Assembly (NCBI RefSeq): GCF_000143415.4
Contig: NW_003314273.1
Span: forward strand, 2,666,719-2,730,718
Length of the DNA stretch: 64,000 bases
Origin: Selaginella moellendorffii
Taxonomy: Eukaryota > Plantae > Lycopodiophyta
Reading direction: 5' to 3'
A program made the translations under genes and the position numbers. Of the stretch, positions 6,615 to 32,100 are shown piece after piece. The notes beneath the pieces were generated by a model. The model made no database searches. It was not told the origin of the DNA and saw nothing but the letters and a program-made list of their open reading frames with translations. Within the stretch, counting starts at the first letter, position 1; each line of letters begins with the position of its first letter.

Positions 6615-9600
6615 TTAACTTATAAAGACAGTTTGTAAGAAAAAAAATGTACACTATTATGCTCCTTTGTGTTCTTCCAATCATTGTGAAATTGTGTTGT
6701 AAAACTCACTTGATTGCAACATTACTTAATATTGCTATTGAGCTGTACTAAAGCCATAACACTAAAGGGTTTTAGACTGTGCTGGACATAGAATTGTTGG
6801 ACTTGCAAAGGAATTCTTGCACAAGCCTAAGGCCTGCTTTAGCCTCACATCTACAGCTTGCCATGAAACTTTCATTTCTCAAGAATGAGGTTAGGTGGTG
6901 CTTCAAAAAACACTTATTTGACTATATGCAGTGAGACTGGATGGTTCTAGTTTTCCAAAGACATGTCTAGAGAGTATAACACCAATCTCAACCTATGTTG
7001 TGGACACGTCTTAGAAGTACTCACAGTTTACATGAAAAACTACTTTGTTTTGCAATGGCTCACTTTCATATGTCCAATGATTCTTTGTTAAAACATATAT
7101 AATTGTTTTAGACAAAGAATCCTGTCTTAGTTGTATTGAAAGCATTCTTTCCCTGTGGTTGCCACTCTGTGTCTGCCACTCCTACTCATCACTGTCAAAG
7201 ACTTTGCACTGTTGCAAGTGGTGGTGATTGTCATTGCAGTCCAGGAGGATGATTGTCTTCTTGGTGATCTCATCACACATTCAACCCTGTTGCTATGCTC
7301 CACCATGTTGTTGAGGCCCAGTATGTAGCTCCACCCTGACGATTCGTGCCACCTGAGCGACACCCCACGGGTGAGAGAAGCCATTGATGGATGTCGATTC
7401 TTGTTGGTAAATGCAGTGTTAACGGTGGTGGTACATCTATTTTCCATCTCTTTTCAATTCAGAGTGGATCACTGATTTTGTAAGGGTAGTTTCTATTGTG
7501 CAATGGCTGGTGAAGCATTACCCAAATTAGAATGTGATCCACTGTTATTCCATAATGCTGATTGATGGCTTGGATTTAGAATAATCTAAAATATGCTTTT
7601 TCAATCCAATGGCAAAATAAAGCATATCCATATCAATATTTATAAACAATTTAAAACTCTAGTTTGAATTTGACGTACTTGGGATGTCTTCCAAATCATG
7701 GAAGAGTGAGTAACCACACACAAACCGTGTAACGCTAGAAGTTCCAAGTAGCTTCTTAGGGATATCCATCTACTTGGCTTAACTGCACTCGCCCACCTGC
7801 CCCACATTTTACCCTTAGTCCAGCAAATGGAAGGGAGATGGATCTTGAGCACTTGCATCGTCCTCTTCACCGCAGCGCTATGGCGATTCGTGACGGTCTA
7901 CTGGTGGCGCCCCAGGGCGACCGCGGCGCAGCTGAAGAAGGAGGGGATTCAGGGGCCTCCACCCCGACTCATGGTAGGCCAAATAGCTGAAATCCAGAAC
8001 ATGAGGAGCGCCATCGAGGATCACGACATGGAAAGTTTCAGCCACGACATCTTCCATCGGGTATATCCTGCGTTGCTCAAATGGCGGAAGCAATATGGTA
8101 TGTTCCTGTCATCCCTGATGAATCTCAAAGCTTTGTTTCTGATGATCATGGTCCAGGGAAGAGATTTGTGTTCTGGTTGGGAACTGAACCAAGGATATCG
8201 GTCTCGGAGCCTGAGATCGTAAGGGAGGTTTTGTCTAAGAAGTTTTCTCAGTTTGATAAATCGGAGGCCGGGCTGCGGTTCGCGAACTTGTTCCTTGGTC
8301 GTGGATTGGTTTCTGTTACTGGAGAGGAATGGAGTCATCATCGCCGACTCGTAGCACCGGCATTCTTTCATGAACGTATTAAAGTGGGTATTCATACTGT
8401 TATCTTCTCATGATGTCTCGCTGATAGGTGTTTCTGATTCTCCTGTACACAGCAAATGACCGGTTCAATCGCAGGGTGCGCATCTCGCATGCTTGATCAA
8501 TGGGAAGCTACGAGACAGCAGAATCCCGAGATTGAAATCTCTGGAGAGGTGCGTAAGCTCACAGGAGACGTTATCTCCCATACAGCATTTGGAACTAGCT
8601 ATCTCAAAGGGCAGAGGGTTTTCGAGATATTGTCTAAGAAAATCCCAGAGCTAGTGCCCAAACTCTTCAGCTTTTCCTGGATTCCAGGCTTCAGGTATGC
8701 TCGATCATCTATTGAACTGAATCATAATCACTTGCTTACAGGTTTCTCCCACTTCCAATCAACCTCCGACTGTGGAAGCTTCATCAGGAGTTGGATTCTC
8801 TGATCACTGGGATCATAGACGAGCGTCGGAACTCAGTGAAGTCAGGGAGGAGTAATACATACGGGAATGACTTACTCGGGCTGATGCTGAAGGAGTGTGA
8901 CAGCAGCAGTAATTTCACAAGCAGGGATCTGATAGAGGAATGCAAGACGTTCTACCTTGCGGGCCATGAGACCACAGCCATCTTACTAACCTGGACTTTG
9001 ATGCTACTGGGAGGCTATCCTGAATGGCAAGAACGCGCCCGTGCTGAGGTACACGAAGTATGTGGCAATGAGATTCCTGATGGCGAGAGTGTCAGCAGGC
9101 TCAAGCTCGTAAGTCGATCAATATCTCGTAATTCCAAAACTTAACTTCTTGATTCTTGAACAGGTGGGAATGATCCTTTACGAAACTCTGCGGCTGTATC
9201 CACCAGTAGTCGAGATGACCAGGGAGTGTGTGGAGGAGTCTTGGCTGCAAGATTTACACGTTCCAAGAGGAGTATCTGTGTCGTTTCCAATTGTTGGATT
9301 GCATCAGGATAAGGAGCTCTGGGGAGAAGATGCAGGCCAATTCAATCCGCATCGCTTCAAAGATGGGATCTCAAGCGCGTGCAGGCATCCCAATGCTTTC
9401 ATGCCGTTTTCGTTTGGGCCGCGGGTGTGCGTGGGCCAGTCGTTTGCGATGATCGAAGCCAAAGTCATTCTGGCTATGATACTACAGCGATTCTTGTTCC
9501 GGCTTTCACCGAACTACCGCCATAATCCTGCGATGAAGTTTGGATTGAAGCCTATGCATGGAGTGCCGCTTGTACTCAGTAAAATGTGATGCATGTTCCT

Positions 9601-9790
9601 GGCATTAGAAGTTCAAAAAAGTTATGTTCGTTGAACTACTCCGAGTTCTTGAACCAAACTGGTTGATAAATCATCTGCTCTTTCATAGTACCTCAGAAAC
9701 GTTTAGAACCATCGCGATGGAGCCCCAAGACAGGTATCTGCATCTCTACCACCGGGTGAACTCGCGGGCTTCCTGAACGATCCAGAGCGA
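6615..9790. repeat. Right arm of the inverted duplication (CYP copy 2 plus flanks)
   Basis: Reverse complement of 61-3195. Confidence 0.9.
7827..9589 (+). CDS. Cytochrome P450, CYP72 clan, copy 2; exons 7827-8097, 8157-8383, 8453-8694, 8742-9108, 9164-9589 (510 aa)
   Basis: GT-AG introns give 1533 nt in one frame. Motifs AGHETT, YETLRLYPP, FNPHRF and FSFGPRVCVG. The five-exon layout is typical of the CYP72 clan. Confidence 0.95.
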
Positions 9791-9999
9791 GACGCGGTTT
9801 GGTGTCAAGCATCCCGGAAGGGGCGAGGGGATCAAGCGCGAGAGCAACCCATCTAGAACCCGTTCTCCTAACTCCTAAATCCGCCTCGAGCAGCGAAACC
9901 CCGGCCTCGAGCAGCGAGAATCTCGGTCTAGACGACCCTAGAAGTGAATATTATAGAACTTTCCTTTTATAGACAGGTCATTCCGTTGAGATATGCAGT

Positions 10000-10900: not shown

Positions 10901-13575
10901 TATTGGCCAACATTACTCAGCTAATCCACCCATAAGACTCTTTTAAAATGGTAGAGAACTATTCACTCTAACTCCTAAACTTCACACTAGTACTGAACAA
11001 TAACAGCTTATGAGCTTATGAGCTCTAGGTGCGCTGCGAGCTAGGGTTTCTAGAAAGGAGCTTAAAGGAAATGAAAAGGTAAGCAATTATAATGCACTTC
11101 CAGGAGTATCTTGACAAAAAACCTTCTTGACAACTTAATTTACAAATGCTCACCTAAGCATGACAAATAAAATCTGTCACAATCTTGAATCAAGGAGTAC
11201 TTAGACATGATTAGTGTGTCACAGCAAGAGGTAAGTGAGCAGCATGAGCCCAACGATTCACAAGGGAGGACACTACAAAAAGAAAGCTACACCAAAAAAG
11301 GTAAAATTACCAATCATCATGTTGAGTCATCTCACAAGCATTCCTAGCTCAAAACTAAGACTATGAATCCAAAACAATTCAAATGTTTACAAAGAAATAG
11401 AGAATCTGAAAGTTATGAAACATAAGAAAACATGAAAGTATTCCAGACCTAAGCTGCTACAAATAGTAGCATTGGAGATGGGTGCTATTGTGAGGATTTG
11501 GCAATCAGTGGTTAACAAGATCTATGAGTTAGTACAGGTTTGGACTCACAATTCTAGCAATCCAAAACAGTCCCAACTATGGAGTAGCAAGTTTGGGATG
11601 ATGTAGAGTCCTAGAGTCAAAGAGCTTCATTAAGCCACCTCTTAGAAGCACATATGTGCTTGTTGTAAAACATGTTGCTGTTGCCACACTAGAGTTGCAA
11701 CAAGTCAAAACACATTTAAGACTAGAAGCTGATTATGTTGATGTTCAAGTTGGTCCATAGTGCTTATAGTAAAAGCCATAGTAGATGTTGTAAAGGTTGG
11801 CAATTCTAACTAAATTAGAAGAATTATTTCCACACATGATGAAGAGGTAAATGTTTTATTTTGTGTATTTTCCTAAGCAGAGCAAAAGAAGGAAGCTTAG
11901 GCAAACTGGAGTTACACCTAAGTTTAGAAAAGAAGAAAAACCTAACCTAGGTAACACTTGTCATAGACAAGTGAGAAGTAGTTAGGAATAGTTATAAAAT
12001 CATATAATATATAAGTAGCACTTAGACGTGCTGGAAAACAACCACCACTCACTATTGTATGCATTTACATTGAATTAATCACCTTTTTTCTAATTTATGA
12101 TTGTTTGTGCAAAGTAGAGTTGAGAGAGTGGCATATACTTATCCTTACTCACACCTTTAGGGTTTGAGGTTGAATTCTATTTTATTCTCTTTTCATTCTT
12201 CTTCTCTCCTTCTCTTTTTTATATTTTCATTTTTGTTTGTTTATCACTATTTTGTAGGTGAGTATAGGCAAAAAAAACTTTACTCACTTTTGGTAACCAT
12301 GGTAGGATATATTATTACTATTTGGTTTGAAAAATAACTGGGAGAAAATTGCTTGTGAAGTCCAAATATGCTTAGCATTAAGAATCACAAGTAGATCTCT
12401 TTAGTGATTGCAAAGACCCTAGCCCAGACAATGCTGAACGAATGAGCTTTTTTGCAAATTGCAATGGTTTAGTGTTCAGACAATGCAAGAAAGATAGTTT
12501 TTCAACTGTCATATAAGCCACAGAGCATGTGACAAGTTTGAAATTGGAGTTCGACATAGATTGCTAAAAAACTCAAGCTCAAATTGTTTTGCCAACAATT
12601 TCTTGAGAAAAATCCAAAAGAAAAAGGAATGAATTTTGTTTGATGTGGAAAACACAATCAACTACTCTAGAATTCTTTCATTCTGAACAAGTTCTTATTT
12701 GAGTTTTCAGAGGACACATTTTTTCAATAGCGTGTCACAATTTTTCTAAGCATACACAAGCAAGAAAATTAAGCATTAGTAACTGTTGTCTTCAACCCCA
12801 GCTTAAAGAGAACTAGAGCTAGCTTTAATAAAGAATAAATTGGGGAATTATTCACCTAAATATTATGAGGTTTTAACAAAGGTAGAATCACAATTAAAAC
12901 ATTGTGTTGTCTTAAAAGCTCTATTTCGTTAAAGTGGGATTTATTCAGTAAAATGGGACTAGGTACAAATTTTCAAGTATTTGAAAATGACGTGAAATTA
13001 TATGTTTTTTGTCCAGGGGCTAGACATATCTGGGGCATGGTGACTAGCGCGGTGACTTTATGTCCAGACTGAGTCCATCTGGTTGTATAATAAATCTCAT
13101 TGTCAAGGTGAACAAGCCGAATCTGAAGCTAAAGAAGAGCGATGGCATGCGCGCACACACTATTTGTTTGTTCATTGAGCGTGTGGTGAGCTTTCCAAGA
13201 TGAACGTCATTCCTATTAGCCAGACATATAACTTAATGGTGAGAACATTTAGATATTATTCAATGTTATCTTTTTCTAACCAATCTAATTGTGAAGGTGT
13301 AGCAAGAGGCATTGTTAGTCTGGAGAAGTCATTTAACTCATTTGACCCTTAGTGTATTTTCATGAAACTAAATAACATTCATATTATTAAGGAATTTCTC
13401 TAGTACCTTTTTTTTACGACATAGAGGCTTGCATTTCTTTCAAAGGTGATTTAGTAAAAGGCCTGAGGGCACATGCCATTCTATTTCTCAGACCGGTATT
13501 AAGATATACTAGTGCAAAGGGAAAAAGGTATTTGGTGATCAAGTAAATGGCATGAGGGCACACGCCATTATAAGC

Positions 13576-13833
13576 CTAAGCGCTAGTGGACACCTCCTTT
13601 TTGGTACTCTCAGCGGTACTATCATCCTTCTCCGGGTCAGTTGTTTTGCTTTGGATTGTTGTCTTTGACGTTACTGGGGCGTTCTCGATAGTTGTTAATG
13701 TTGCCGTTTGTTCAGAAAAATGATCACCTGGAGTATAGTACGGGGAGTTTGGAAGACTTATATATTCTACATCTTCACCTATCTCCTTCTCCGTCTCCTT
13801 TTCTGCCTCACTTACAGATTTTGTGCTTGCCAT
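13576..13833 (-). CDS. Small acidic, Thr/Ser-rich ORF (85 aa, MASTKSVSEAEKETEKEIGEDVEYISLPNSPYYTPGDH...), possible third gene of the element
   Basis: ATG in a good context (tcATGG), protein-like composition, flanked by palindrome copies. No recognisable domain. Confidence 0.3.
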   Translation of the reverse strand: MASTKSVSEAEKETEKEIGEDVEYISLPNSPYYTPGDHFSEQTATLTTIENAPVTSKTTIQSKTTDPEKDDSTAESTKKEVSTSA

Positions 13834-14473
13834 GAGAACGCTCTTCACCCTAAAATATGGAGTTCGTTGTGTTATAAAAGGAAACCAACACACATGCTGC
13901 AAGGGAATGATGGTACATAAAGCACGTAAGCCCACAATATGGGTTTATGTGCCATTAATATGGGCCACACGCCATATTATTAGATTTATGCACGTGTGAT
14001 TGGTAAATGCATATGTCACATCATCTTTGTTTTACCTCACACACTATATCAGGCCTAATGAACCATATCACATGTGCGCACATGCTATATATATGGAGAA
14101 GTATTATGCAAGGATAGAAAAATTCAATGCATGATTGTGGAGAGCAATGGCATGAAGCCACATGCTAAATAACATTTTAGAGAAAGAATTAAAATAGAAA
14201 CATGCAAACAGTACTGAGTGGACCAAGACTTAGAAGTGCACAATTGAATGAGGTATTTCTAATAAATATTTCACTCACCTCATATAGGAATGGCTACCAC
14301 TCTCAAATGGCGTATCGCCTCATGCCATCACCTCGCAATTTGTTATAACAATCCGATGAATTCATATTCGGCTTGTTCACCTTGAACTTTAAGTAAGATT
14401 TGCTAGAACAACTAAGAATTTATACTTGTTATTTGTATCATCTCACTTAGGAATGGCGTAAGGCCACATGCCA

Positions 14474-17400
14474 TCACGCCTCCTCTGATTCAGATTCGGA
14501 TTGTTCACCTTGAAATAAAATACATTAGAAACTTAGTAAAGGAATATTCATGAATCTCACCTTGAACCCGGGTTATGAATGCTCTTGCTGCATCTTTTGC
14601 ATGGTCTGGCAAGGTGATGGTGGCACTCTGCTTCCGCATCCAACCATGCACAACATTATCCACCGATATGCTCATGCTGGGATCCCTTGGATTCAGCACC
14701 CATCTCTTTTCTAGGCAATCGTTCGTATATCCGGAACTTGGCTTGAACCACTCCACAGTTACATTGAAGGAGTTAGTTTCCGTGTCCTCCTCTGCATCAG
14801 TGATGCAGCGCCCCACCCATATCATTTGTTTTTTATTACTGGGTCTGACAAGCACGACCATTCCTTTGCAGACCTGTACTGGATTGAATGCTGAATCCGG
14901 CTTCTTGTTCCTCGGCCCACAATAGTGATCCTCAACATCGTTATCTGTCACTGCATTTCCAGAGGACATTGTTCCGCTACTATCTGGTGTTCTGGGTTCT
15001 GGCCAAAAGGACTCTTCCAATTCTTTATATACAACCGGCCCATTTTGGATAGCAGATATAATCTTCTCCCAGTATTCGAGCAAAGGTTTGCACCTCTGAA
15101 AATAGGATTCTCCACCAAACACCAACCCCCTCTTCCAGAAGGCAATATGCTGTCTAATCCCGGCCACTATACTTTCCTGGTCTTTGAGTCCATCCGGGTG
15201 CATCGGCCGTGGGGAACCCTGAGGAATCATAGGTTCCCCAGTTATGGGATCTCTCTTGAAGAGTTCAATGCCATCCACTGGCAGCCACACTGTGTCCCAT
15301 TCTCTCATCTTGTACCTCATCACTGGAGCACCGTCACACATGCTGAAATGAAACTGAAGAGGCTTGGAGTGGCCAATCAGCGTTTCGGATCCGTCCCTGA
15401 TGTAGCCTCTTACAAACCCCTTAAAGTCTGGAACCTCTGTCAGAAGTGCAGCTTCAACAGTGCCTTTGATGCAATTTTGGAATTCATCGTAGAGTTGTGG
15501 GAGGGTGAGGACATTGGATCGCCGGAGGGACTCTGCCAGGTGACTGAACATGGCATCGACGTCTTCATGAGTGTGCCCAACCATGAGAAAGCCAAGTGTA
15601 ACCGTTTCAAATATGCCTTTGGCAACAAGCATCGCCAAGTACGCGAAGATGTACATGTTTTTGTTCTCACTGCCAGCATTGTCTGTTTGGAGCAGAAGAT
15701 GGGGTGGAAGGCCACATCGGCCGCAAGAACTTCCTTGAGATTCTGCTTCGTTTGGATGAGGCTGTGCATTCACCGGGCGACCAGCCTCGTCGGAATGACA
15801 TGAGGCCTCACGTGATAACCCTACAATCTGACGGCCAACATATTCACTGGGATGGCATGGGGCCCCACGCGATACTGCAAGCCTTTGCTCCTCCTCCAGC
15901 TGAACCCTGTATGGGGTTCGATCGACAAGGGCCTTATGCAAGGGTTGGCCGTTCAGCTCAGTCTGCGCACTTTGCAGAGACCTTAAGTGTTTTGCTAGGG
16001 ACGCAATCATCATGTTTGCACCCCCGCCACCCCATAGAGGTACAAAGAAGTTCCCATAGTTCTGGGCACCATGCCCATGAGCGATTATGCCAAACAGAGA
16101 CACAGGCAGCTGCATGGATGAAGAGATTGCCTTGGGGGCAGGATTGAGTCGAAGTAAGCACGTCTTTTTCTGGTCCATTTTGTCGTGGATGATGTAGAGG
16201 TAAGAGTCAGGTCTCTCCATTGGAGAGAATCCTGTTATGATAATATGCAGTCCTGCAGCTTCTCTGCTCGATGTTGTGGTCGAGTCGCCTTCTAACCAAC
16301 GTCTCTCGCTCTTGAGCGTTGCAAGAATTCTTCGACAAAGCCATTTTGATAGCAGTGCACTCGTCACACTTTGAAAAGCTGGAGTACTTTCCTATACTCA
16401 CATCTCTGAACCTGTTGCTCCACAATCTACTAAATCTAGATTGGCTCAGCTTCCTGTAGCCATTACTCTGGAGTTCCCGATTCACATCTTCCAATATGGC
16501 CCCCTTGGTATACATGGAAGGGAGAACTCATTGGGTGTCTCGTGTTCCATCTTCCAAGAGGCGGGTTTTATGTGGTTGCTGCTCGCTACATGTCTCGACA
16601 AACCTCTTGAAGATTGCCTCTCCATATACAACATGACCCCTGGTTTTGTGCGTACCGTCGTTCCCATGGACTGCCTGTTGAACCCTTTGTTCCTCGAACT
16701 CAGTTTTGATTCTATAGAATGTGGTTCGAGGGACTCCATAAATGATTCTCCATGCCTTCATGCAGACCAAACCCCTCTGGAAGACCATGCCCCCCACCTG
16801 ATGTTCTGAAGCATCAACAGATGACCGTAATGCCTCATACACAAAATTGCGAGCTGCCTTCCAGGACAATGTCTTGTATCTTGCTCTCTCCTCTTCAATA
16901 GCATCCCAATCAGCATGTTGACAGCACCTCCTCTTGCAACAAGCAACTGTCGAGACCATTCGAACCTCCATCGCCATTTTCTGCCTTTTCGGTTCGTTGC
17001 TCAGATCCCTTTGGCTGCGCTTTAGGAAGGTGTACTTTCTTTTCCCATGAAGAGATGTTCTGTCATCAGTTGTAGTGGTGTTTGATTGTGAATCCTTCAC
17101 ATTCTCAAACACTAAGTGCCTCAATTTCCACCGCACAATGCTTCCAATAGTCAGACTGTTTTCTTCTGTGTCAACAACCTCTAAAATCGCAACTCCAATA
17201 TCATCCCAGCCCAATTCTTGATTAGCAACCGCATCTCTTGGATCGACAACTGTGGCTAAGCCCTCAGCTACCACCTCCCCCTCGGGGTTGTTTAGAAACA
17301 CCTTTGCCTGAATCCATGTAGCACGGTTCTTAAGATCCACGGAGGGAACATGCGTCGCACTTGCGCTGTCCCCAACATCTGCTTTCTTCTGAAGATTTTT

Positions 17401-17616
17401 CAAGGCAACAACAACATTTACCCCGACGACCATCTCTCCTCGTTCAATAGCGACCACATTCCCATCGAAAACAGTCTCTACTGATACAGCAGCATTGCCT
17501 TCCCCAAGCCTTTGACAGTGTATAACAAAGTTCCGATCCATAGACACAAGGGTCCCTTTTGCAACTCTCTTCCCACCATTCAAAATGTAAACCTTTTCCC
17601 CAACCCTGAAGGCCAT
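14474..17616 (-). pseudogene. DDD/E RNase-H-fold transposase, Sola1-like, ~1030 aa; one in-frame stop (16528-16530) and one +1 frameshift (~16220)
   Basis: Three ORFs join into one protein with FSKCDEC...H...R..YY..R, IIHDKMDQKKT, LLLQTDNAGSENKN and FLMVGHTHEDVDAMFS. A terminal intron (14560-14509) adds GEQSESESEEA*. The superfamily name comes from motif recall, not a search. Confidence 0.8.
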
Positions 17617-17979
17617 TCTGAAAGTGCAGAAAAGAAGTTAAGACCATACAAAAAATGATTGGAGAATGGCCTAAATCATAACATACCAAACAACCTCAAT
17701 AGCATGAGGCCACATGCCATTATTCAAACATGCTATTGACACCCACGTGAAATTTCGCATTCACAAAATTGGCATGAGGCCTCATGCCATCTTGATATAC
17801 ACACAGCTGCAGGCAAGCAAAAACATACATGACAATACGCTAGCCATGAAATTGCAAGGGCCCAAGATGGCATGTGGCCTCATGCCATTTCTAAATGTGG
17901 TCTTAAGCCATTCCATGGTGAACATACCAGGAAGCACAAGTGCCGAATATCAAGAGGAAGCGGTAGCCACACCAAAGAC

Positions 17980-18112
17980 AGTGCCGCTCGCAACACCGCA
18001 ACTACTCGTAGCGCCGCTCGCAACACCGCAACTGCTCGTAGCGCCGCTCGCACAAACTGCCACTCGCATAAACTGCCGCTCGCAATGGCGCTCGCAATGC
18101 CGCAACCGCTCG
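17980..18112. repeat. GC-rich 27-bp tandem repeat (gcgccgctcgcaacaccgcaactRctcgta-like) with degenerate continuation, 5' of the transposase
   Basis: Read directly; two near-perfect units plus partial units. Confidence 0.8.
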
Positions 18113-18481
18113 TAGATGCATAAACCACAGCCCACAACGCCGCTTACACAAGCAGCACTCACTGCGCTCAGCGGAACCAAGAACACGGCGCACAAAAATG
18201 ATAGACCTAGGAATGAGTTCGAGAATTCAAAAATAACACACGCTTGAACGTCACATCAAATCCTCTGACAAACCAGATCTTATGATTCCTCTGACAAATT
18301 TCAAACTGAGTAGCTTCTAGACTTTACTGTCGGAGGTTGAACTTTGTCACATCATGTCCTTACCTCGATCTAGCTGTGCCATGTCAGTGATTCGAACTTT
18401 GCCATGCCATGTCAGCGATCCGCGCCAAGATTATTCGCCGTGTAAAGGAATAATTATGCTGTGTGTGTACGTCCATTTATG

Positions 18482-19835
18482 GCAATATAAGGCCACACGC
18501 CATTCAAAGAATAATGCTCGACATAAGGCCATACGCCATTCAAAGAATAATGCTAGTCGAGCATTTTTTGGTGCATTTTTGGGTTCAAAATTGCATGAGC
18601 CCACACGCTATAAAGTTTACTTGTACCAAAAATAGAAACAGCTTTATTTACTTGGGAATTTAAGTGGTTGAGGCATTTTTAAACTTACAAACACATGCCC
18701 TACTTACATTCCTTTGGTTGCTTAAAATTCAAAAATATTATAAACCTTTCTTTTTGCATTTTCAATGTTTTCAATTATGGTTTTTGATTTTCGTAGGACC
18801 AGCCTAGTAATCTATTTGCATCCCGTCATGTTTATAGCTAGCTTTCGTTTGTCCCCTTCGCTAGCCTGAGATACATCTGCTCGGCATCTGCCTCTTACAG
18901 CATTTGCCCAGAAAGGGCATCTTTCTTCACGCAGCATTTGCCACATGTTTAGGGTTTAGGGTTTAGCAATTTAGTAGCTTGATAAACATGCAAATACAGA
19001 ACTTGATGCAAAATCCTTTGATATGTCACAATGCCCCTAGGACCATAAACACATTTCAATAGAGAGGGTCCTTTCATTTCATAACTCCTTACGTAGATCT
19101 TGGTGAAACCAGAGTTAGTGAAGTTAGTTTCTTGTAATCCCGCATCTGATTGTGATGTCCCTTTGCAGTTTCGATGGAAAGGTCAATGCACACCAAACTG
19201 TAAAATCTTGGAGCAAAATAACGGTCGGATCTATGGCAAATGCCCCTGAAACATTGTAAGGCTCGTGTGGTCTCATGTGGTGTCCGATCGAGATGCTTCT
19301 TTGCAGGGTCATTAAGAAAGACATTGTATACCATTCTGTAAAATCTAGTTGCGATCTAACGGTTGGATCTCCAGAAAACTCAAAAAAATCTCGCGCGTGT
19401 CAGAATATCCTAGGAATATACTCCTATGTGCCCCTGAAAATGGCATGCGGCCCCACGCCATTCAAGAGATAATGCCAGATGACACCGAGAATTTTTTGGT
19501 GCATTTTTTGGGTTCAAAATTGCATGAGCCCACACGCTATAAAGTTTATCTTTGCCAAATAGAGAAAAGTTTATCTGTGTCATGTGAGGTAGTTACAGTC
19601 CTTTGTGCTCGGCATCTGCCTCTTGCAGCATTTGCACTGAAAGGGAATTTTTCTCCATTCAGCATTTGGCCCTGAAAATGGCATGCGCCCACACGCCATT
19701 CAAGGAATAACGCCACAGGACGCCTGGATTTTTGGGTTTAAAATGTTTAGGGTTTTTTGGGTTTTTTCAAAATATTTTGGGTCCAACGTTTTTTGGGTTT
19801 CTTTGGTTCAAAATTGCATGAGCCCACACGCTATA
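18482..19835. repeat. Three dispersed direct repeats of a ~120-160 bp unit (~18500-18620, 19440-19550, 19678-19835), each with two palindromes
   Basis: Shared text ...cacgccattcaa(a/g)ga..taa.gc....ttttggt...ggttcaaaattgcatgagcccacacgctataa. A second block, tgctcggcatctgcctctt.cagcatttgc, occurs at ~18878 and ~19606. Confidence 0.85.
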
Positions 19836-20179
19836 ATATTGATTTGAGAGAAAAATAGAAATAGATAGAATTTCTTTATTTAGCTGAACATCTGCCATTT
19901 TTGGAAATACAAGATGCTTTGGAATATCCAATCATGCATGGTATAAATATAGCGAGGGTATTAAATGATATCCCAATCATGATCTTTCTTTTGGATTTCG
20001 CGTGCATGCAGTCCGAGGAATGATGACGTTGCGGATTTCTTTTGGATTTTGCGTGCTTGCATGCGCGCGGCAATCCAGAAATTAATGGTGGCGCCCAAGT
20101 CTGAGGAATGATGACGTGGCGGGATTACCAACCATTGTGACATTTCACGCGTGTGAGGTTAGGTTTTGCATTTTGCTTT

Positions 20180-20380
20180 GTACTCGCGCTCGCACACTCG
20201 CGCTCGCGCTCGCATCACACTCGCGCTCGCGCTCGCATCACACTCGCGCTCTCGCTCGCATCACGCTCCCACTCGCGATCACGCTCACTTCTCTACAGGT
20301 TTCTCGTGTGCATCGGCGTCCACTCGCGCTTGCATCACACTCGCGCTCGCATCGCGCTCGTGTGCATCGGCGTCCACTTC
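20180..20380. repeat. CpG-rich (CTCGCG)n / cgcatcacactcgcg repeat upstream of the fusion gene
   Basis: Read directly. Confidence 0.85.
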
Positions 20381-20828
20381 AAGACACACCCAGTTTGTAA
20401 CTTCGCCGCCAACTCCGCCGCCCACTCCGCCACCCACACGCAGCCCACTTGGCGTCCCAGGAGATTTCAGCACCACTCTCCAACTGTAAGTGGCAGAGTA
20501 GCCTTGCTGCTACGATCCGCTGCACACACAGTGCACATTCGCCAGTGAGTCCGGCCTCGATTGTCACGGCCTCCATTCGGCTTCAAATGGTAAGTCTTTT
20601 AGGCCAAGTAGAAAATGGCATGAGGCCATATGCCATTCAGTAGCAACATTGGCATGCACCGATTGGGCTCTCGAGTGCAGTCCGGTTACAGATGGCGTGT
20701 TGCCTCACGCCATTTTAGGATGCAGCCTCAAGACATCTGATGCAGTGGTGAATAGCGTGTGGCCTCACGTTATTTCCAGTTGCTAGCTTTTCATCTGTCA
20801 GCTCTAATTGTTGTGCATTTCTCAACAG

Positions 20829-23800
20829 ACGAGGAATTGCGTTCTTCTTCCAGCCACTGTCAATGTGGATGCAGAGAAGGGGGAGGAGCTCACCAGTTGG
20901 ACTTTCGGGATGGAAGGCGAGGATCTGATGCTGTACAACACAGATAGTGGGAGAAAAGAATGCATGGGGATCCTCATCCAAGTGACAGACACTCCATGCA
21001 GTTCCATGCAAGAATATGGACTGGCACTTGTGGTAGAGACAGCGTCTGCCTTCAAGATCCACCTTGCACATCCTAGCGGCTTCCCGGAGGGGGGCAGCGG
21101 CTATGAGGAATTCCTAGAGGGAGCTAGGGAGAGGTTGTCCAGGAGGCCCACAATTTCAAAGACGTTGCGGGTCTATGAAGATCACATGGAATCCACGGAC
21201 CTCACCTACGGCGATGTTCAAAAACTATATTCCAACATTGAGCCGTTGAGAGTGCCTCCAGTTTGCGAAGCGAAGGGGAAGGGGGTCGATCTGGAAACTA
21301 CCCCGAAGCAGAAAAGGGTGGTCAAGCTCAAGCCGACGTCCGACTCTGCTGCTCCAAAAAAGAAGCTACTCGGTGATGCCATTGCCTCGAGTTCGAACAC
21401 TACACCCACCAAAAAGAAGAGCCGCAAAGAGCAGAAAGAGCAAGAAGAGGTAGCAAAAATCGTCGCAGATAATAGTACTTGTTACTATTCCAACAAAGTA
21501 TATACAATCGACGTGAGCCGTATCGAGATCCAAAGCAAATACAACCACAGGCTAGTATCTGATGAGTGGGTGGAGAAACTGAAGCAGAAGATGCTGGCAA
21601 GTCCAGTAACACCCGACATCGCAGACGTGATCCCCTACTACCGAACAATGAAGGGCGAGACGAGGTTTCCAGACTTGATCAATAGGAAGGTGTTGGACGA
21701 TCAGAACATCCGGTTCTATGCCGTCTCCGGGCAGCATTCTAGCTTGGCGATGCAACAGATAGTTGTGGATATTATGGTGGGCGAGGAGGTAAAGAAAGTC
21801 TTCAAGACAAGAGTTGTCCGCCTGATAAAAGGCAACTCGCCCCTCTGATCTATCATATACATCTCCCACGCGCAGAATGTCAAGCAAGAAACGTGCTACA
21901 AATCGGGTCTGCACGAGACATTGGCACGAACACGGAAGCTCTGGGTTCAACTGAAGAAGCCACAAAAACCAGGACAAGGACGTGCACTAGCAACTAGCGC
22001 CTGACAGGTAAGCCTCGTTGCATGTGGCATAGCATGTGGCCTCACGCCATTTCCATTGCAGGAATTCTCGAGTCTTCTCTCGAAAACACTGGGGGTCAAT
22101 GACACACTCAGCATCCATAACATTCTACTCGCGACAAAAGTTGTTTTTGACAAATGGGTAGATGTGCTGAGGAGGTACCATGACGGGGAGTTGCTAAACT
22201 CAATGGGTGTGGAGGACGGCCGGAAGCCCAATGATTTGAAGCTCAACGCCTTGCGTTTCTCGCGGTCTCTAGACGACGACGACCTTCTGACAGTGGCTAA
22301 TGCTCTTCTACGTGGTGAGGTAGTCTTCAACAAGACCAAAATGACTCCCGGCCATATTGTGACATACGAGGACTTGTGCACGACTCTGAGAGCTCGTGCG
22401 CTATTGAAGGATTGGATCTTCGAGCAAGTGGCCGTGGCGAGGGTGAACATCGACACCACGCAAGAGATGATGGAAGAGCTGGAGTTGTCAAATGAAGACA
22501 TCGACGACTACGTGAAGGGGGCCCCCAAGTTCATCGATCTGCTGCGGGATGCCACGAAAAGTAAAGCTGAAAAGTTGGATCAGTATCCAAATTTCATTAA
22601 GAGGGATGTCGACCGCCGGCTTCAGAAACAGCTCGACCCCGCAGCAGAGGCCTATCGAGAACCTTACCGGGTATACGTGAATTCAGATGAGGATCAAAGG
22701 TGGAGGAGCATCGTTTCCCGCGGAGATGAGCAGGTCAAGAACATCTTTTGTGTGATGGACTTCACAAACGAGGAGATCACTCATGCAGACGAAGTTAGCT
22801 CCATCATTGACTTAATGGTGGGACTTGCAGAGGTGGAATCTTCAGTCCACTATATGATCTACGACTCCGAATCCTATCACAAGTTCTGGAAGGCCTTGAA
22901 CGAGGTGAAGGCTCGGTTGAAAGGCAAGGAGATGCGGGAGATCCATGGGATAATGGCTAAGAAGAAGATACCGACGAATGTTCGCATCTTCACACTTGCC
23001 CTTGTTATTGGTCCTGCAACAGAGTGGGACTGGAGTGACTTCCCAGCTTCGTTCAACAAAGCCGATCGAATTGATCTGAGGGAGGTCAATTTACCTGTGC
23101 CTGAGGAACTGAAGACGGCTATGGAGCTTTCGAATCCAAAGAAAGCTTCAGGTGCAGCATGGGAAATGCTCAGCTGGGTCTTCAACGCAATAGCAGGTGA
23201 CTCCAAGGGCAAATGCGTTGTCGAGTACAACTGCGGCGGACTATTCTTTCGAGCCGCACTACTGAAGGGTGTCCCGTGTGTTGCGGTGACAAACTCCATT
23301 GAAGAGGTGACTTCAATGGAGCATATAATTACAGTTGCCAAAGAAAAACAGTATCTTCTCTACGAACCTGGTGAGTACGCACTTTAAGTTTAAATGTTAT
23401 CTCACAAGCTCTGTATGTAGGAGCGTGGCCACCTCCAGATGCTGAAACGGCGTTAACAGCTACTGATGTTAGGCCGAGCTCACAACCTGCACAAGGTAAG
23501 GTCACGTGAGGCCTCACGCCATTTTGATTATAGATCGTTGTGAATATTCAGACACGAGGACTGAAAAGTGCACTGGTGGCGCGTCGAAGAAGGACAAACA
23601 GACAAGCAATAGGAAAAAAGGAGGTACAAATTATATTTGCAATGGCGTGTGGTCTCATGCCATTCTTTGCAGGAGACACTTCTTCAAAGGCAAAACAAGC
23701 AAGCACCAGCCAAGCTCAAACTGACAGTGGTCATAAAAAGCGAAAGCACGTTGGACAGTCGTCGGGATCAGAGGCGTTTGATTCGAAAAGGAAGAAGGGC

Positions 23801-26192
23801 AACGAAAAGATGATAGGTAATGCCTCGCGGTTATGGCGTGTGTGCTCATGCCATTCATTGCAGATCAAGGGCTGAGTGAAAGGAGCCAGTCACCACCTTC
23901 TGACTCAGATTCCTATGGCGAACTCCCCTTCCCCAATCTCAATGGAGAGGTACAATGGATGAGGGATGCTTTTCAAGTCAGGGCCACGTTTTTCTCATCT
24001 CGTCGTATTCGAAGGGTGCAAGAACGTGCAGAAACCATGTTAAGACAGTCAGGTGAGGATACGGTCCTAGGTCACGCACTAAAACAGGCTATGGATGTCT
24101 TGTATTTTGAGATGGAGACTCGGCCAGATGATTTTCCCAAGATGGTCCTGGAAAAACAAGCCATCTAGCCTGAGCAGCCTATGGAAGAAATGCAGGAGGG
24201 GGATGAGGAGCCAGAGAAAGATAATGAGCAGGAAGAGCAAAAGGACGAAGAGGAGGACAAAGAAGAGGAGGATGAAGAAGAGGAGGACGAAGAGGACTTG
24301 GATGGTCCTCACAATGGTGACGATCACAATAACGACGATGACGATGATGACGACGATGGCCAGCCTGAGGTGGCCAAAGAGCAGCGGAGGAAGGTCATAC
24401 AAGACAAACCATCAGGTAAATAATAGTACATCCATTCCTAACCTTTTACCATTTCTAACATTGTCCATATAGGTCGCAGAAGAAATGGTAAGTAGAGATT
24501 ATTCAGTTGAATTAAGATACAAACTCTAGCCTTTAGTGTCGAGGAAGGATAGTGCCAAGCAAGGGTCGAAACGTATGTCTAATCCTTCAGAATCAACAGT
24601 GCGCCCAAGTGATATCGGTCCTAGTTCCTCAATAGCAGTTGATGGTAAATACAGTATAGTCGATTCAATGTGCTAATGAGTTTGTTTTTAGTAGCACGGG
24701 AGGATACCATCTCAATCGAAGGGAGATATTTGGACATGCATATGGATCCGCCAGTGGACTCTACTTGCCTGCAAGAGTCATCAGAGCTGGTGGAGGCTAC
24801 TATCCATATCAACGCCAAGCAAGCTGACCACGCTCCACTTGATGCTGCCCATACCACTGAGTCAATCTTGTCCACGTATCCAACTGACGGTGACCAGACG
24901 CCATTGGACCCGCATGAGGCCGCCCCAGCCGCCGAGCCGGTCGTATCCTCATTTCCAACGTGTGCCCAATCGTCTGACTACGCGCCATTGGAACCTCCCT
25001 ACACCGCCCCTGCTGCCTGTTCGGTCATGTCCACTTTGCCAACGGAGGCACAAGCTGAAATGGCGTGTGATCACACGCCATCGGAACCACCCCATGCCAC
25101 TGTTGAGCCAGTTGTACCAGAGTCTACAGCTGAAATGGCATGTGCCCACACGCCATCGGATGCGATTGACCCCACATTGCAGAGGAGAGTATTTCCGCCC
25201 TTCACGTTTCCTCGACCAAAACCCTCTGAACGACCATCGGGAGCACCATTCGCTAATATTGTAGATGGTAAAATTGACTTGTACCATTTTTTATGCTGAC
25301 GCATTTCATTTCAGAGTCACGGCGAAAGTACTGTATCGTTTTTGATCTGAACGGTGTCCTTTTCTCCCATGAGCGTGGCTCGTCCTCGAATGTCACTGCA
25401 CCCTCCAAAGCCTGCGGTCGCAAGTTGGTCAAAAGAGACAGATTCACATTAATCACACGGGAGAAACTGCGGGATCTAATAATGACCATGCGACACTTAA
25501 AACAGAGGGCCGGGTTCAATTTGCAATTGGGAGTTTGGACATCCATGATGCGCCACAATGCATTAACGTTGCTACAGATGATGCACGATCAGACGCGAGT
25601 AATATTACCATTTGACTTTCTCCTAACGTAGGAGGATTGCTTGACTATGGTCCATGTGAGGGGTAGCAAGCCCATCTTCGTCAAGGCAGAGGCTGTAGTG
25701 ATGAACCGGACTGCTAGGTCAAGTGAAATCCTCATCATCGATGACTCGCCGATTAAAACTGCAGCGAACACGCACACATATGCAGTGCACCCCATCTCTT
25801 GCAGTATGGAAACTAGGGAGAAGAAACCGTATGTTCTGGGGGACCTTGCAAAACGGCTTGAAGCGATGGTGATAGAGAACCGGCCAGTCCAGGAGGTGGC
25901 TGCAGAAATCAACCAAATGGCAGATGGAACGGTATATCAGAAGCCATTTGATCGGACAGACACCAGTCATCATTTATGGCATGTATATTGTCTAGCCAAG
26001 CACTATCCGCATCTCCATAATCTGCTCAACCGGATGGGTTCTTCGACCACTGAACATGAGCGTGGACGTATTAGAGAAGAGATGGCATTACTATTGGGTT
26101 TAAATCCTGATAGTGTGGAGAGTGATGAAATTCCAAGATTATTGTATAGGCGTTGGAGGCAAAAAATGGCATGTATTTATTTAAAAATGTAA
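20829..26192 (+). pseudogene. Spliced ~1,635-aa fusion: ParB/Srx-like domain, degenerate beta-class DNA amino-MTase fold, basic/acidic/Pro-rich linkers, FCP1/NIF-type HAD phosphatase; four in-frame stops; 5' exons (~20587-20750) unresolved
   Basis: Exons 20829-22007, 22062-23370, 23421-23495, 23552-23623, 23673-23816, 23864-24415, 24473-24487, 24537-24644, 24692-25267 and 25315-26192 (4908 nt) join in one frame through GT-AG introns of 47-57 nt. Stops at 21846, 22002, 24166 and 25629. Motifs: FYAVSGQHSSLAM; KGKCVVEYNCGGLFFRAALLKGVPCVAV; IVFDLNGVL..VWTS..LIIDDSPIK. Confidence 0.7.
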
Positions 26193-26999
26193 CTTATTAT
26201 GGCATGGGGTTCCATGCTATTGTATTAATATTAAAAGACAATTCTTTGAGAGGATTTGCATTTACAGCATGTTATTGGAAGTCTACGAAGTTGTTTTATT
26301 AATAAGGGGAAAGTAAAGATTGAATGGGGACTTGGGCTCCACCTAGACTCGGAGCAATTGAGCCAATATTAAAAGGATGGAAAGAAATTGGACGACGATG
26401 ACAAGGAGAAGAGAGAGGTGAAGCAGTGGCAGGGGGAGGAGAAGTGATTGAGTAGACATTTCCTTGTTTAAAATAAAATGGCATGTGCCTCAATGCAGTT
26501 GAATTTTGTTATATTTATATACTATATAAAGGTTTGGAAACCTTATTTTACAAGTGGGATAATGACAATTCCCACTTTAACGAAATAGAGCTTACATATT
26601 CTACACAACCTCCACATGACCTCCAACTAGAAACAATTATCCTAACCGCAATTCTAGCATATTATTTCCATTTGCTACTTGCTTGATCCACCATAAACAT
26701 ATGCACATGTCATTAATTATGACTATAGTGAGACATTGATGCTTGATTCATGCCAAGTAAACAAATGGAGTAAGTGATAGGAAGTATTCAAGTAAAGACT
26801 AAGGCCCAAACTTGGAAACAAATGCTCAAGAAACATGCATACTATGAATCAATGCAAGGAGAAACCTGTCATTTGGCCATTATTTTCACCATTGTTGGGA
26901 ATTTGGAAATTGGAATGGAATAGTCCTGGCCACCTTGCTTTTATCCTGGACTTGCAAGTGAGGATTTTGTCTGACCATGTACTTGGTGTGTAATCTCTA

Positions 27000-27650
27000 C
27001 TAAGCCAAAACCCCTTTCAAGAACCATGACTGAAATATTCATTAATCTCATCAGATTCATCCACCACCACAACATTCTTGAGTGCAAATCTATAGTAGAT
27101 TTCTTTGTATACTTTTTCACTGAAAGGGCATAACCAGTTGGCATTCTGTCTTATGATTAGCCTATGAGGCCACCCTATCAGTTTTAAAAGCACATCATTT
27201 AAGTCTAATACCTGTTGCTACCAATCACTCCAAAGGGTCCCTTTGCATGCTGGTTCCTGGATTATATGGGACCATTTGTTCTTGTGGAGAAAAAACATAT
27301 GTACATCATTGCAGTGATAGATTCATGCACAAAATAGGTCAAGGCCATCTCTGTTGTCTCTGCAGACTAGATATGCATTGTCAACTTCCTATATAGCAAC
27401 ATATATTATCATTTTGGTGGGGAAGTCGTGAATGAAATCTTCAAGAGCTTGAAGATTCACCATATTTAATCTAATATTCATTATCCATAGAGAAATGACC
27501 AAGTTAAGTTTACAAGTCAAATTCTTAAGAATGTCATTTGTAAGATGGTTGACTCTTATCCACACCTAGCTATAACACTTTCCTAGGACTTTATAGTCTT
27601 TCTAAACCTCATTTAAAATGGTTATTGGAGCCATGCCATACCTCTGCCTA
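27000..27650 (+). mobile_element. Decayed Gypsy integrase relic
   Basis: Fragments DYMGPF, YIIAVIDSCTK*VKA and YYP*RNDQVKFTSQILK. Confidence 0.65.
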
Positions 27651-29177
27651 CAAAATAGTGACAAACAAATAGAGGCAAGAACGTAGAGAAAAGTAAAAAA
27701 GATGAAGAAAATAAGAAGAGAATAGCTCAAACCTTAAATATGTGAGTAATGATAAGCATATGTCACTCTTGTAACTCTACTTTGCACAAATAATTATAGG
27801 TGAGAGAAAAGATGGTTAATTCAATGTAAATGTATGGGGGTTGTTTTTAGCACGTCTAAATGCTAGTTATATACTATATAGTTTTATAATTGTTCTTAAC
27901 TACTTTTCATTTGTCTATAATAAGTGTTGCTTAGGTCAGGTTTTTTTCTTTGGATGCCTAAACTTAAGTGTAATTCCATTTCGCTTAAACTTCCTTCTTT
28001 TGCTTTGTTTGGGAAGATATACAAAATAAAACATTTACCTCTTCATCACTCCCCCACAATAAAGCTACTACCTATCCTTAGACAATCAAATTCTCTAAAT
28101 CTTGCTCTAGGTTGCTGAGCTTATTTTTCATAGTGACATGCTTAATGCTTTGGTGTAGATTGTCAAATTCCTGACACATGATCTAATTTTTCTAGTTAAG
28201 TAGTGTGATGCACTAGTCTTGGCAGGTGATGTGCTTTATATCAGTGGATGTAAAAGCCAAGATTGCACTCTTGAGTTCTTGAATTATATGGTGCTGATGA
28301 TTCTACTCACCCATGACTCTATCCACTTTTTTGGTGATTGTCTTGAGGTAGCTCAAGATCTATGCATGGTATTTTGTTGTTTTTTTGTCTTCCATCGGCC
28401 GGATTGGCTCGTCGATTGGTTGCTTGCCTCCTCCCTTGATATGTTGAGCAAGCTCCTCCATAAAGCTTCAAACTGCTAGCTCGATAGGCTGAGTCGCAAA
28501 CTTATGCGTAAAGGCATGGTTAGCTTTGACCTTGTAGTGCTTTTGTGATGTCTACTATTGCTGTGGCTGCCTCATCTTGCTAGATTGGTCTACCAAAAAT
28601 GTGTTGCTATTGGAGGTGGACTGGAGAAAACTAGCCCATACTTGTCTAGTTCATCTAGACCCTCTTTTGTAACCTCATCCTCTTTGTCTTGTTGAGTTTC
28701 TTGGCTGTGATCTTCTTAGCCTAAACTCACCTTATTAGCTATATCTACGACCAATGGTTTTACAACATCTATAGGCGTATCATGTGTTAGACTTTGTGGC
28801 TTAAGTTCTAGAATTTCTTCCACAACTTTGGCATCTATCATTTGCCTAGTGTTGTTCATTTGTGTACTCATCACTTCCTCGATGCTTGGAGAGATTTGTA
28901 TCAACATCAAAGTTGTCTCTGTAGACGTAGATGAGTCATGACTCTATTCTTGATCTGGGCATGGCTTTTTATCACCGTACTTGCTGCATCCAATTTTTCT
29001 ACGGCATACTTGGCCATTGGATTTCTGCGAAACAAACCCTGAGCTTGGATTTTTAGATTTAGACGGAGTTTCTTTTTGAGGGGAGAATTTTCCTCACTTG
29101 AATTTATATTGTTAGGATTCTCCTCTACATCCACATCTCTAGCTATATCCCTTGAAGGAAATATTGGAGGTGGTGGC

Positions 29178-32100
29178 TGTAGCACACGTGGTTTTGACCC
29201 TTTATCCTATAGTGATTTACCATAGGATAACACCACGAAGCGGAACCTAAACCCTCTTTGTGCCACGTGATAGATGCCACGTGTCCAAAGGAACATGGTG
29301 TGGAACCCAAGGTTCAGGGCTCCACTGAACGAAGGAACGGTGCCAAACTCCCAAGCATGGAGCCAAAGAGTGACGGAACTGGACCAAAAAGCAACTCCCG
29401 AGCATACAGCCCAAGGAGCAAAGGGACAGGAGCCCGGAGTGACTTGGAACAGTCCTGGAGCAACTAGCATCCCAATGCCAGAACCAGCACGCAAAACGGA
29501 GCCAAACAGAGTTTAGTGCTATTTCAGCATACCGGTGGCCTAACGCGAGGACATGGGTACTCCACCAGCTAACATAGAATGGAACTTGGGCTTAGACCCA
29601 AGCCAGACGTAGAACAAGGACAAACACGCAAGCGAAAGCTAAACTATGCCTCAGATTGGTCGGCCATACCCGACCTACCCACTATCCCTACTATACATTT
29701 GGAACCCCCCATAGCCCGCTCCCCCTTGGGGAACACATGCTTTGGGCTTTCACCCCAAGCCTCCCTTAGTATTAGGAGTTAGTCTTTGGGACAAGCTTGA
29801 AACTTAACAAATATGGAATGTCTTTAGATTGTGAATTTGAACATGGGATGAACACTATTGTGTTCAGGCCGATCTCTACATTCTGTAGATATGCCAAATG
29901 AGCAAATCTGGACACTTTCCATAAATAGCATTTGGGACCGAAATGAGACTAACACAAAGGGCATGATAGCGAGGGTGTTTGGCAGACACGATAAGCTATC
30001 ATGTAGCGATATTGAGGGACTAATGTCAATACGCAAGGGTTCTTGTCACTAGCAAGTGCAAGACAAAATGAGATGGGAACTCCTTACTGAACTAAGTATG
30101 CTTAGCTAATAACACGTAGGAATTCTATCCTTATGCTCGTCCGGTCTAAGTACACTCGAAATGCCCAATTAACTCCACTAGCACAAGAGGGACTGATAAA
30201 GGGTCCAGCAATACCGACCTCCTGCCATCGTGGCAGTAAGGTAAGAGTGTCCATAAGGACTGGTCGACAAGTAACTTTCGATACCCGAAGTCACATTCAC
30301 GACACTTTCTCCCCCTAAGGAAGATTGACGTCCTTGTCGATGCATACTCGAGTCTAGACCACCGCCAAGGAAACAACTCCAGAAAAATTTCACGGTGATC
30401 ACACTATATGAGAAATGCACTGACTTAAATGAGTTAGAAGGCAACCTCTTTGTCTAACACGGATGCGCTACCAGCTCAGACACCTTCCGGCCGTCGCCAA
30501 CAAGGAAATGACCAACAGAGTCAGCCACCCTTGTTGCTCTAGGAGTCACCTAGCTTACAAAAGTGTGATATGCCCCTGCCCACAAGGACATAGAGAGAGA
30601 AGCCAGAGGCCCCAACCCTCCTAAGCAAAGAAACCAAACCCGTCGATAAGGTTTAGATAGACTACTGTAAACAGGCAGTTAGAGTTGTTTACACGGTCAC
30701 ACCCTTTTTAACGAAATAAAGAACATCGGCAAAGAGGCGGGTGATGTGACCAGTCGACAGTAACTACCCCATGACTAAAGATTTCACCATGCATACGAAG
30801 TGCCAAAGCTAGTCTGCCTATACTAGCCCAAATTCAAAGATCAATAGATGGACAATATCAAAGTCATAAACAATGATATCTTAGAGACTTAATTACTAGT
30901 GATTAAATCTTAGAGTAGAACACAAAAGTATTCCAAGTAAGTTATCATCCGATAAACCAGTATTATAGTAGATAGGAACCACCAAGATCATCACAAGTGG
31001 TAAACATAGGATTCACCATCCAACAAAATTCAATAGCAAGTATATCACCAAGTAAACTCAATGATGAAACTTAACTATTGAAGATAGCAGACAGTAAGCC
31101 AACAACTTACTAGAAATAACTCAAAGAACACAAAGTATCATTGACTGAAAATTACAATACTCGCGAATGTATCACCTGAAGGAAATAACATTCCAACCTA
31201 TCAAAACTAATTCAAGCAACAATCAACATAACTGTAGCGCACTTTATCTCTCTCCCTTTAAGCCAATTGGAAAAGGGGCAATTGCTTGATGAGAGAGCCC
31301 TTAGTGGCTATTTTATCCCCATTTATCCCCCAAGGTTCCAAGGATCCACAGTAACAGTATATCCAAATCTTATCCCATGATCACATACACTACACTCACC
31401 CCCCCTTCAGAGATGTCAATGTCCTCATTGACTATTGATTATTGACTAACAACCCCTACTGAGCTACTGTGAGGCAACTAGTCATCCACCCGTACCGCAG
31501 TCCCACGGTGGATACCTTTGTCTGGGATGCTCCACAAGAGGAAGGACATACGCATGGATGCCCAATACGTACAATTTTCTAATTTAGGGGTAGAAATATA
31601 CCTTGCTCAAGGGTATATTATATTTTAAGTAGCCACTAATCAATGGGAATCGAACCCGTGCCATTTACTCTGATACCAACTATAGCGCACCTTATCTCTC
31701 TCCCCTTAAACCAACTAGAAAAGGGGTAATTGCTTGATGAGAGAGCCCTTAGTGGCTATTTTATCCCTATTTATCCCCCAAGATTCCAAGGATCCACGAT
31801 GACAGTATATCTAAATCTTATCCCATGATCACATGCACTACAATAACAGAATGAATGTGGTAAGACCGACAAACACCTAGTCATGTCAACTATCATACTA
31901 GCCAATCTGAATAGATCCTAGTCAACAATACGAAGGAACCAGAGTTGCTTAAACAAGTGTTAGCAACATCCTTTTGATGTCTCAAACCCAACAAACCAAT
32001 CTAAGGCAAACCACAAGGAACATGTGGTATTGCGAAAAGCCATAAGCTATCAAAGAGAATAACTAACCATCATGAAAGATCATGAATTATCCCATCAAAA

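Follow-up and report, generated by a model that had tools for sequence, protein, structure and literature searches.

We analysed a 64,000-nucleotide (nt) stretch of the Selaginella moellendorffii genome (NCBI RefSeq assembly GCF_000143415.4, contig NW_003314273.1, positions 2,666,719 to 2,730,718 of the forward strand; hereafter the window, with coordinates counted from its first letter) and found that a decayed copy of a multi-copy DNA transposon at 12916..26593, about 13.68 kb long, carries a dispersed array of some 30 copies of a 22-bp palindrome. The array is real, selected and specific to this transposon family. On balance, the best overall explanation is that it would serve as a parS-like, family-specific array of binding sites for the element's own accessory protein, whose gene is divergent from that of the transposase.

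The initial annotation of this DNA, made from the sequence alone, had proposed about 30 copies between 13142 and 26499. Searching with the 22-bp consensus at three mismatches or fewer recovered 24 matches, all within 13458-25156, as against none in 100 shuffles. With a symmetric position weight matrix (PWM), the 64-kb window contains 30 sites scoring at least 8 bits, 28 at least 12 and 27 at least 15 (these last being termed strong), all of them in 13142-26499, which bears out the earlier count; Markov resamples of the window (n=30) gave on average 0.3 sites of at least 12 bits, with a top single score of 17.8. In the window sequence outside the element the matrix finds no full site, its top scores being 2.9 for the 12.9 kb to the left and 5.4 for the 37.4 kb to the right. 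Every site comprises two 8-bp half-sites (ATGGCRTG) separated by 6 bp: this spacer yields 30 matches and each other spacer from 3 to 10 yields 0-3. The annotation had noted that length and dyad symmetry are kept.

Its further statement that the flanks are mostly unrelated holds for 23 flank groups, which have only the 22 bp in common, and fails for the 11 of 30 copies that fall into four locally duplicated groups; repeat comparison added the local duplicates 13458/13547 and 14307/14453. Other copies of the family, seen in run contigs, carry extra palindromes near 12959 and 17790, and one extra palindrome in the family contigs is joined via a linker that is itself palindromic, which indicates that sites still arise by local duplication. 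The last transposase exon together with a palindrome is present three times (13103-13164, 14300-14386 and 14452-14514), once inverted near the left end. The purine/pyrimidine (R/Y) columns of the palindrome do vary as annotated, but they coincide exactly with CpG versus TpG/CpA; hence part of this variation may represent decay of methylated cytosine rather than tolerated degeneracy.

Predicted coding sequence makes up 61% of the element, yet only four of the 30 copies lie in it (binomial p 1.3e-7), each in a variable linker; the other 26 are outside coding DNA. All introns mentioned here are predictions from the sequence, and the contigs of one possible RNA run are unspliced and may be DNA. 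Seven palindromes (13142, 13458, 13547, 14067, 14147, 14307 and 14453; together 13142..14474) occupy the left end, the surroundings of a small gene and the transposase stop; two more (15795..15873) lie inside the transposase frame in a stretch without alignment to homologues. The predicted 5' intron of the transposase gene (17618..17927, minus strand) holds three, at 17699, 17769 and 17867, and the region between the divergent genes holds seven, at 18482, 18518, 18590, 19440, 19519, 19678 and 19813 (18482..19834). In the accessory gene, predicted intron 1 (20590..20828, plus strand) contains 20615, 20692 and 20752, four short predicted introns of 47-56 nt within 22008..23863 (plus strand) contain one each (22029, 23501, 23642 and 23833), and a duplicated coding linker contains two (25060..25156); those at 26199 and 26478, the latter weak, follow its stop (26199..26499). 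The copies are thus spread through the element, introns included, and are not restricted to its ends, in keeping with the annotation; the terminal inverted repeats (TIRs) and the first 225 bp have no full site. The proximity to stop codons that had been pointed out is likewise seen: 14453-14474 overlaps the stop of the predicted last transposase exon by one base, 13547-13568 ends 7 nt from the stop of the small open reading frame (ORF), and the palindrome at 26199 begins 6 nt past the stop of the accessory (fusion) gene. The predicted introns at 23371-25314 measure just 47-57 nt, short for a plant, and have CTRAY-like branch words.

The extent of the element was established from family contigs. 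Contigs of runs X4 and X6 start at 12918 and stop at 26594 with loose ends beyond, read depth outside the element drops more than 100-fold, and right flanks differ among the family contigs; together with 27-nt TIRs at 12916..12942 (plus strand, 96% complementary to its partner, lacking the palindrome) and 26567..26593 (minus strand), this indicates that the array extends through a single multi-copy TIR transposon about 13.7 kb long. No target-site duplication (TSD) is present at the ends of the window copy, the single copy with both flanks, which read TTAA on the left and ACAT on the right; repeat depth is unequal on its two sides, so the site may have been rearranged later. Terminal bases vary among copies (AAGCTC or ATGCTC type), and run X5 (record 26) includes a 283-bp non-autonomous derivative with both TIRs that matches window positions 26552-26591. 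An inverted repeat at 11837-12258 and 27647-28048 was ruled out as the TIR because the depth of the element stops at 12918 and 26594; this 77% identical pair lies about 0.7-1 kb outside the element and is no part of it. Relative to the run X4 contigs, 81 of 107 differences are C>T or G>A in the window copy, a bias that we infer to be that expected of methylated DNA. Decay has left the transposase gene with one premature stop and one extra base and the accessory gene with four premature stops.

The transposase gene (14474..17616, minus strand) encodes a DUF7869 protein (PF25273, E 2.5e-42); its lesions are a premature TGA at 16528-16530 and the extra base near 16220, and its last predicted intron spans 52 nt (14509-14560). 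We found 101 homologues, the named ones being from liverworts, a coral, a lancelet and a sponge, and no relatives in viral contigs. The core VGHTHEDxD is invariant, and the motifs GHT..D and DNC.xxNKN are those that we take to mark Sola1 transposases. By-eye comparison places AAAGTGG at TIR positions 16-22, where the insect Sola1 TIR listed in PMC3845634 (Table 1) also has it, and gives AA...TT termini as described for Sola1-1_Ec32 (PMC12477816). Membership in Sola2 was ruled out, since the window transposase lacks the Sola2 motifs DFxENY, SDG..QYKN and FATSHGKxxCD of the alignment in supplement S10 of PMC3627910. As the window copy, between TTAA and ACAT, does not have the 4-bp, mostly AWWT TSD of Sola1 elements, we name the element Sola1-like instead of filing it as a member.

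The accessory gene (20587..26192, plus strand) has 11 predicted exons and 1,636 codons, with an N-terminal region followed by a predicted ParB fold, a helical domain, a methyltransferase-like alpha/beta part, an acidic linker and a NIF/HAD domain. A search of 1.84 billion representatives returned 22 matches; 19 of these, four cluster members and the window protein form the 24-row alignment A3, from which P0106, P0109 and P0110 were left out as repeat artefacts. The named relatives are from Selaginella, Calypogeia, Riccia and Adiantum (lycophyte, liverworts and fern); the fern protein P0135 shares the domain order of the window protein, and the fern homologue P0123 also has the NIF/HAD domain. 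Predicted intron 22008-22061 appears as an 18-residue insertion relative to the homologues. AlphaFold2 run on A3 gave a predicted local distance difference test (pLDDT) of 80-95 for most of residues 10-390 and below 50 for much of the remainder, as compared with only 32 on the single sequence. The putative ParB/sulfiredoxin-fold domain (21477..21893, plus strand; model residues 3-141, pLDDT mostly 80-95) has GQHS at Box II. The best 11 Foldseek rows consist entirely of ParB and Noc (probability 0.95-1.00, E 0.008-0.044), with alignments of 272-303 columns that extend past the N-domain, while VIA-align matches spanning model residues 2-306 include PadC (Z 9.2, 99 residues, root-mean-square deviation (rmsd) 3.3), KorB (Z 8.9, 94 residues, rmsd 2.7) and pNOB8 ParB (Z 8.5, 206 residues, rmsd 4.3). 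In whole-model searches the alignments to pNOB8 ParB, Spo0J and Noc reach the helical part at residues 140-306. These comparisons predict a ParB N-terminal fold for the accessory protein.

Toward the end of the model, residues 516-633 retrieve many S-adenosylmethionine (SAM)-methyltransferase rows in VIA-align (Z 4-6.7) at low pLDDT; PF01555, the N4C/N6A methyltransferase family, has no match in the element proteins. The NIF/FCP1-like HAD domain and C-terminus (25317..26189, plus strand; PF03031, E 1.1e-05) form the last exon. Sequence searches of Pfam, NCBIfam, PHROGs and PDB gave no name for the ParB-like or middle domains, and no ParA-like partner was matched among the element ORFs. Accessory-protein features pointed weakly to DUF3723 clusters (score 0.90, 138-140 features in common), for which we found no literature linking DUF3723 with ParB.

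We then turned to 92 loci with a related transposase, most of them short or decayed. None has the window palindrome, and a de novo palindrome detector set at five copies or more returned L002 (5), L009 (6), L021 (10), L087 (30), L090 (42) and L043 (5); the null distribution for L043 reaches 4 copies, and the clear arrays are the other five. Each clear motif, 16-22 bp long, is different and nearly private, only the loose L090 pattern also matching L087, eight times. L009 mirrors the layout seen in the window with another palindrome, which sits in an intron, overlapping the transposase stop and in coding linkers. L087 and L090 each combine a palindrome array of their own with a transposase of the DUF7869 family and a domain that is divergent from, but homologous to, the ParB-like domain (profile match 73%, E 3e-5, 88 columns). 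The two arrays of L087 (3392-3735 and 12366-13392) lie within predicted introns and have nothing but the core of the palindrome in common; its 16-bp palindrome, TGTTGAAATTTCAACA, matches in length and in its outer TGTT...AACA what we take to be the bacterial parS consensus. Both loci belong to intron-containing, animal-like contigs (733 and 589 kb) inside prokaryote genome bins, and L087 has, by inspection, Helitron-like Rep and helicase ORFs at 14909-18957. L073 (17-9819), a complete DUF7869 element of 9.8 kb, has TIRs of 514 bp and, divergently, another cargo gene; it shows neither a palindrome array nor a ParB-like match. Word-based protein searches with the accessory protein and the L087 domain gave no matches. 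In a FastTree phylogeny (86 rows, 83 different) the motif-bearing loci lie on separate long branches, too weak a result for claims of co-evolution.

As to the nature of the site, the fixed spacing, independent arms, avoidance of coding DNA and lack of TSDs make a double-stranded DNA site the best reading of the sequence, supporting the dimeric-protein site first envisaged. Were the palindromes to act as RNA or single-stranded DNA hairpins, for instance in shaping short-intron splicing or transcript ends, one could point to the four short introns with one palindrome each, to the three intron copies that end 9-11 nt before the 3' splice site with a branch-point-like right arm (CTCAY), and to the sense-strand excess of G-U over A-C (14 vs 7). 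The arms, however, show no covariation, the test that the annotation had put forward: 239 cells are paired, as compared with 237.2 +/- 4.8 when the halves are shuffled (p 0.38), the de-duplicated copies give 179 as compared with 176.0 (n=22, p 0.27), and variable columns 6/17 and 9/14 pair at chance level. Moreover, 31 of 198 sense-strand arm cells are non-pairs, five of ten predicted introns lack a palindrome and many copies are between genes; we accordingly reject hairpins, to which we give very little credence, though the right arm could double as a branch point in the three short introns as a secondary use. Equally little credence goes to neutral by-products, that is, micro-insertions or local duplications of a chance palindrome. 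The duplicated blocks with 11 of 30 copies and the tandem-repeat character of the L087 and L090 arrays fit such an origin, but not the 23 groups sharing nothing beyond 22 bp, the fixed spacer or the way in which arrays recur, with new sequences, in distant families. The direct repeats beside the copies do not resemble TSDs (mean 2.3 nt vs 1.6 at random positions); two of them are long, and these are local tandem repeats. Independent micro-insertions, which TSDs around the copies would have betrayed, are rejected.

Given a double-stranded site, the binder may be sought among the proteins of the element or of the host. The accessory protein, by its predicted ParB fold, is quite probably the binder of the palindromes; the joint presence of an array and a ParB-like homologue in L087 and L090, and the lack of both in L073, speak for it. 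The main rival, which we consider unlikely, is that the transposase binds them as internal equivalents of subterminal repeats, aiding end pairing or self-activation: its family is the one gene common to all array-bearing loci, arrays flank it in L021, L009 and L051, and the AtMu1c transposase alone is described as binding and activating its own family (10.64898/2026.08.24.746577). Yet the AtMu1 binding peaks reported in that source sit at the TIRs, whereas here the TIRs and the first 225 bp are devoid of full sites, the 283-bp derivative retains both TIRs and matches just the last 40 bp of the right end, and L073 has the transposase with no array. Far less likely still is a dimeric host transcription factor for which the element gathered sites to be transcribed; the clustering of sites in the spacer of the divergent pair and in the first intron of each gene would suit it, but the related families have different, almost private palindromes of 16-22 bp, some 50 kb of host-side sequence has no full site, and a promoter role would not usually place sites at 3' ends or in late introns.

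Several observations weigh against the accessory protein as binder of a parS-like array. Among the 92 related loci, 75 have three or fewer copies of any palindrome and 11 have four. L002, L009 and L021 do not extend far enough for an accessory gene to be seen, which leaves the transposase as the only protein observed in every array-bearing locus. For L087 and L090 the plant-family hidden Markov model (HMM) alone is not significant (independent E value 0.05-0.4), and ParB-like fragments in L097 (15446-15643) and L098 (2919-3116), 61-62% identical to that of L087, have no array nearby. No Foldseek row reaches E 0.001, and VIA-align Z values of 8-9 barely exceed the common background. The Box II arginine is missing in all 17 rows of A3 that cover Box II (GQHS/GQHT/GLHS). 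The methyltransferase-like part is modelled at low confidence (pLDDT 30-60), and the accessory translation lacks (D/N/S)PP(Y/F), the catalytic motif of N4C/N6A DNA methyltransferases. Mutation of the Box II GxxR arginine to alanine abolishes nucleoside triphosphate (NTP) binding in the ParB-family members tested in 10.1101/2025.10.10.680097, so that a CTP clamp is not assured. The ParB-like fragments of L097 and L098 adjoin fragments of another GHT-motif transposase.

Under the parS-like reading, a dimer of the accessory protein would bind the palindrome, with each subunit on one 8-bp half-site and the helical domain behind the ParB fold contacting the DNA. Protein from an intact copy would load in trans on the sites of all family members and cover both divergent promoters, the first introns and the 3' ends, which might maintain the expression or open state of the element in the face of host methylation, in the way that VANC does for VANDAL. 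Wherever there is free sequence, sites would multiply by local duplication in direct or inverted orientation, and sites and protein would change together, each family serving only itself. That the purpose of the array is anti-silencing is an analogy we advance tentatively, judging it possible but short of probable. A bolder version appears doubtful to us, in which a clamp loads at private palindromes and spreads over the 14-kb element, the pseudo-methyltransferase and FCP1-like phosphatase reset chromatin or RNA polymerase II, and protein-palindrome pairs co-evolve across plants, algae and animals.

Parts of this arrangement have been published. The giant Ectocarpus Sola1-1_Ec32 (21.5 kb, 282-bp TIR, 4-bp TSD, AA...TT termini) is described as having, on the strand opposite the transposase, an accessory gene with ParB-like and N4C/N6A methyltransferase domains whose product is proposed to bind and modify its own element (PMC12477816). 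The window element has the same divergent transposase/ParB-like gene pair; it differs in its 27-bp TIR, the lack of a TSD in the window copy, a methyltransferase-like part without the usual motif, the extra NIF/HAD domain and some 30 dispersed palindromes, which the main text of PMC12477816 does not mention. PAG3 of the red-algal Plavaka (EnSpm) elements, as reported in 10.1101/2025.02.11.637652, resembles it in being an accessory gene carried by a transposon, in its ParB-like N-terminus and in sharing the element with inverted-repeat arrays, which are proposed as its binding sites. There, however, the transposase is of EnSpm type, the effector is a 2-oxoglutarate (2OG)-oxygenase and the arrays are tandem beside the gene, whereas the sites in the window are element-wide and intronic. 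The gene pair (Sola1-1_Ec32) and ParB genes beside inverted-repeat arrays (PAG3) were hence already known from these sources.

In Arabidopsis, VANC acts on VANDAL elements, whose family-specific motifs occupy introns, intergenic and terminal non-coding DNA and grow by local duplication (PMC5735166). The window element likewise has an element-encoded accessory protein and a family-specific motif in non-coding DNA, but VANDALs are Mutator-type with non-palindromic 8-9-bp motifs and an unrelated protein whose function is proven; with its DUF7869 transposase and predicted ParB-fold protein in place of Mutator/VANC, the window element is no VANDAL. According to 10.1101/2025.02.11.637652, VANC is the sole protein shown to bind and modify its own transposon. 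Bacterial ParB/parS, Noc, KorB and VirB, the last a ParB-type anti-silencer (10.64898/2025.12.19.695565), likewise have a helical domain after the ParB fold, and clustered palindromic sites (10.1101/2025.10.10.680097); they differ from the window protein, which lacks the Box II GxxR arginine and any ParA partner seen, is encoded by an intron-containing gene and has added enzyme-like domains. The literature covered does not describe any Sola element with palindromes dispersed in this way; that coverage stopped short of the PMC12477816 figures and of the supplementary files to 10.1101/2025.02.11.637652, which may bear on the point. What is new is that the palindromes are scattered over the entire element and its introns, that this is seen in a Sola1-like lineage of land-plant type, and that the motifs are family-specific.

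Other features of the element include the last exon of a small acidic gene of unassigned kind (13576..13853, minus strand; no Pfam match), GC-rich tandem repeats at 17980-18113 (30-nt units) and 20193-20354 (23-nt units) just upstream of each divergent gene near its likely start, and a short TTTAGGG-type run at about 18950-18968 in the central spacer. Elsewhere, the window contains three cytochrome P450 gene copies (136-3207, 6603-9820 and 55880-58200), the first two mutually inverted, and a nested Ty3-type long terminal repeat (LTR) retrotransposon at 29178-48112 with gag, reverse transcriptase (RT), RNase H and integrase ORFs.

The sites of algal transposon ParB-like genes have so far been at most noted as neighbouring repeats. 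A sharp 22-bp site in 30 natural variants, together with five other site sequences, makes binding, specificity and clamp behaviour directly testable, and orthogonal protein-site pairs would be on offer if the parS-like reading is true. The element would then mark its own DNA through its own ParB-like protein, and a bacterial segregation fold would have been reused for self-recognition in eukaryotic chromatin.

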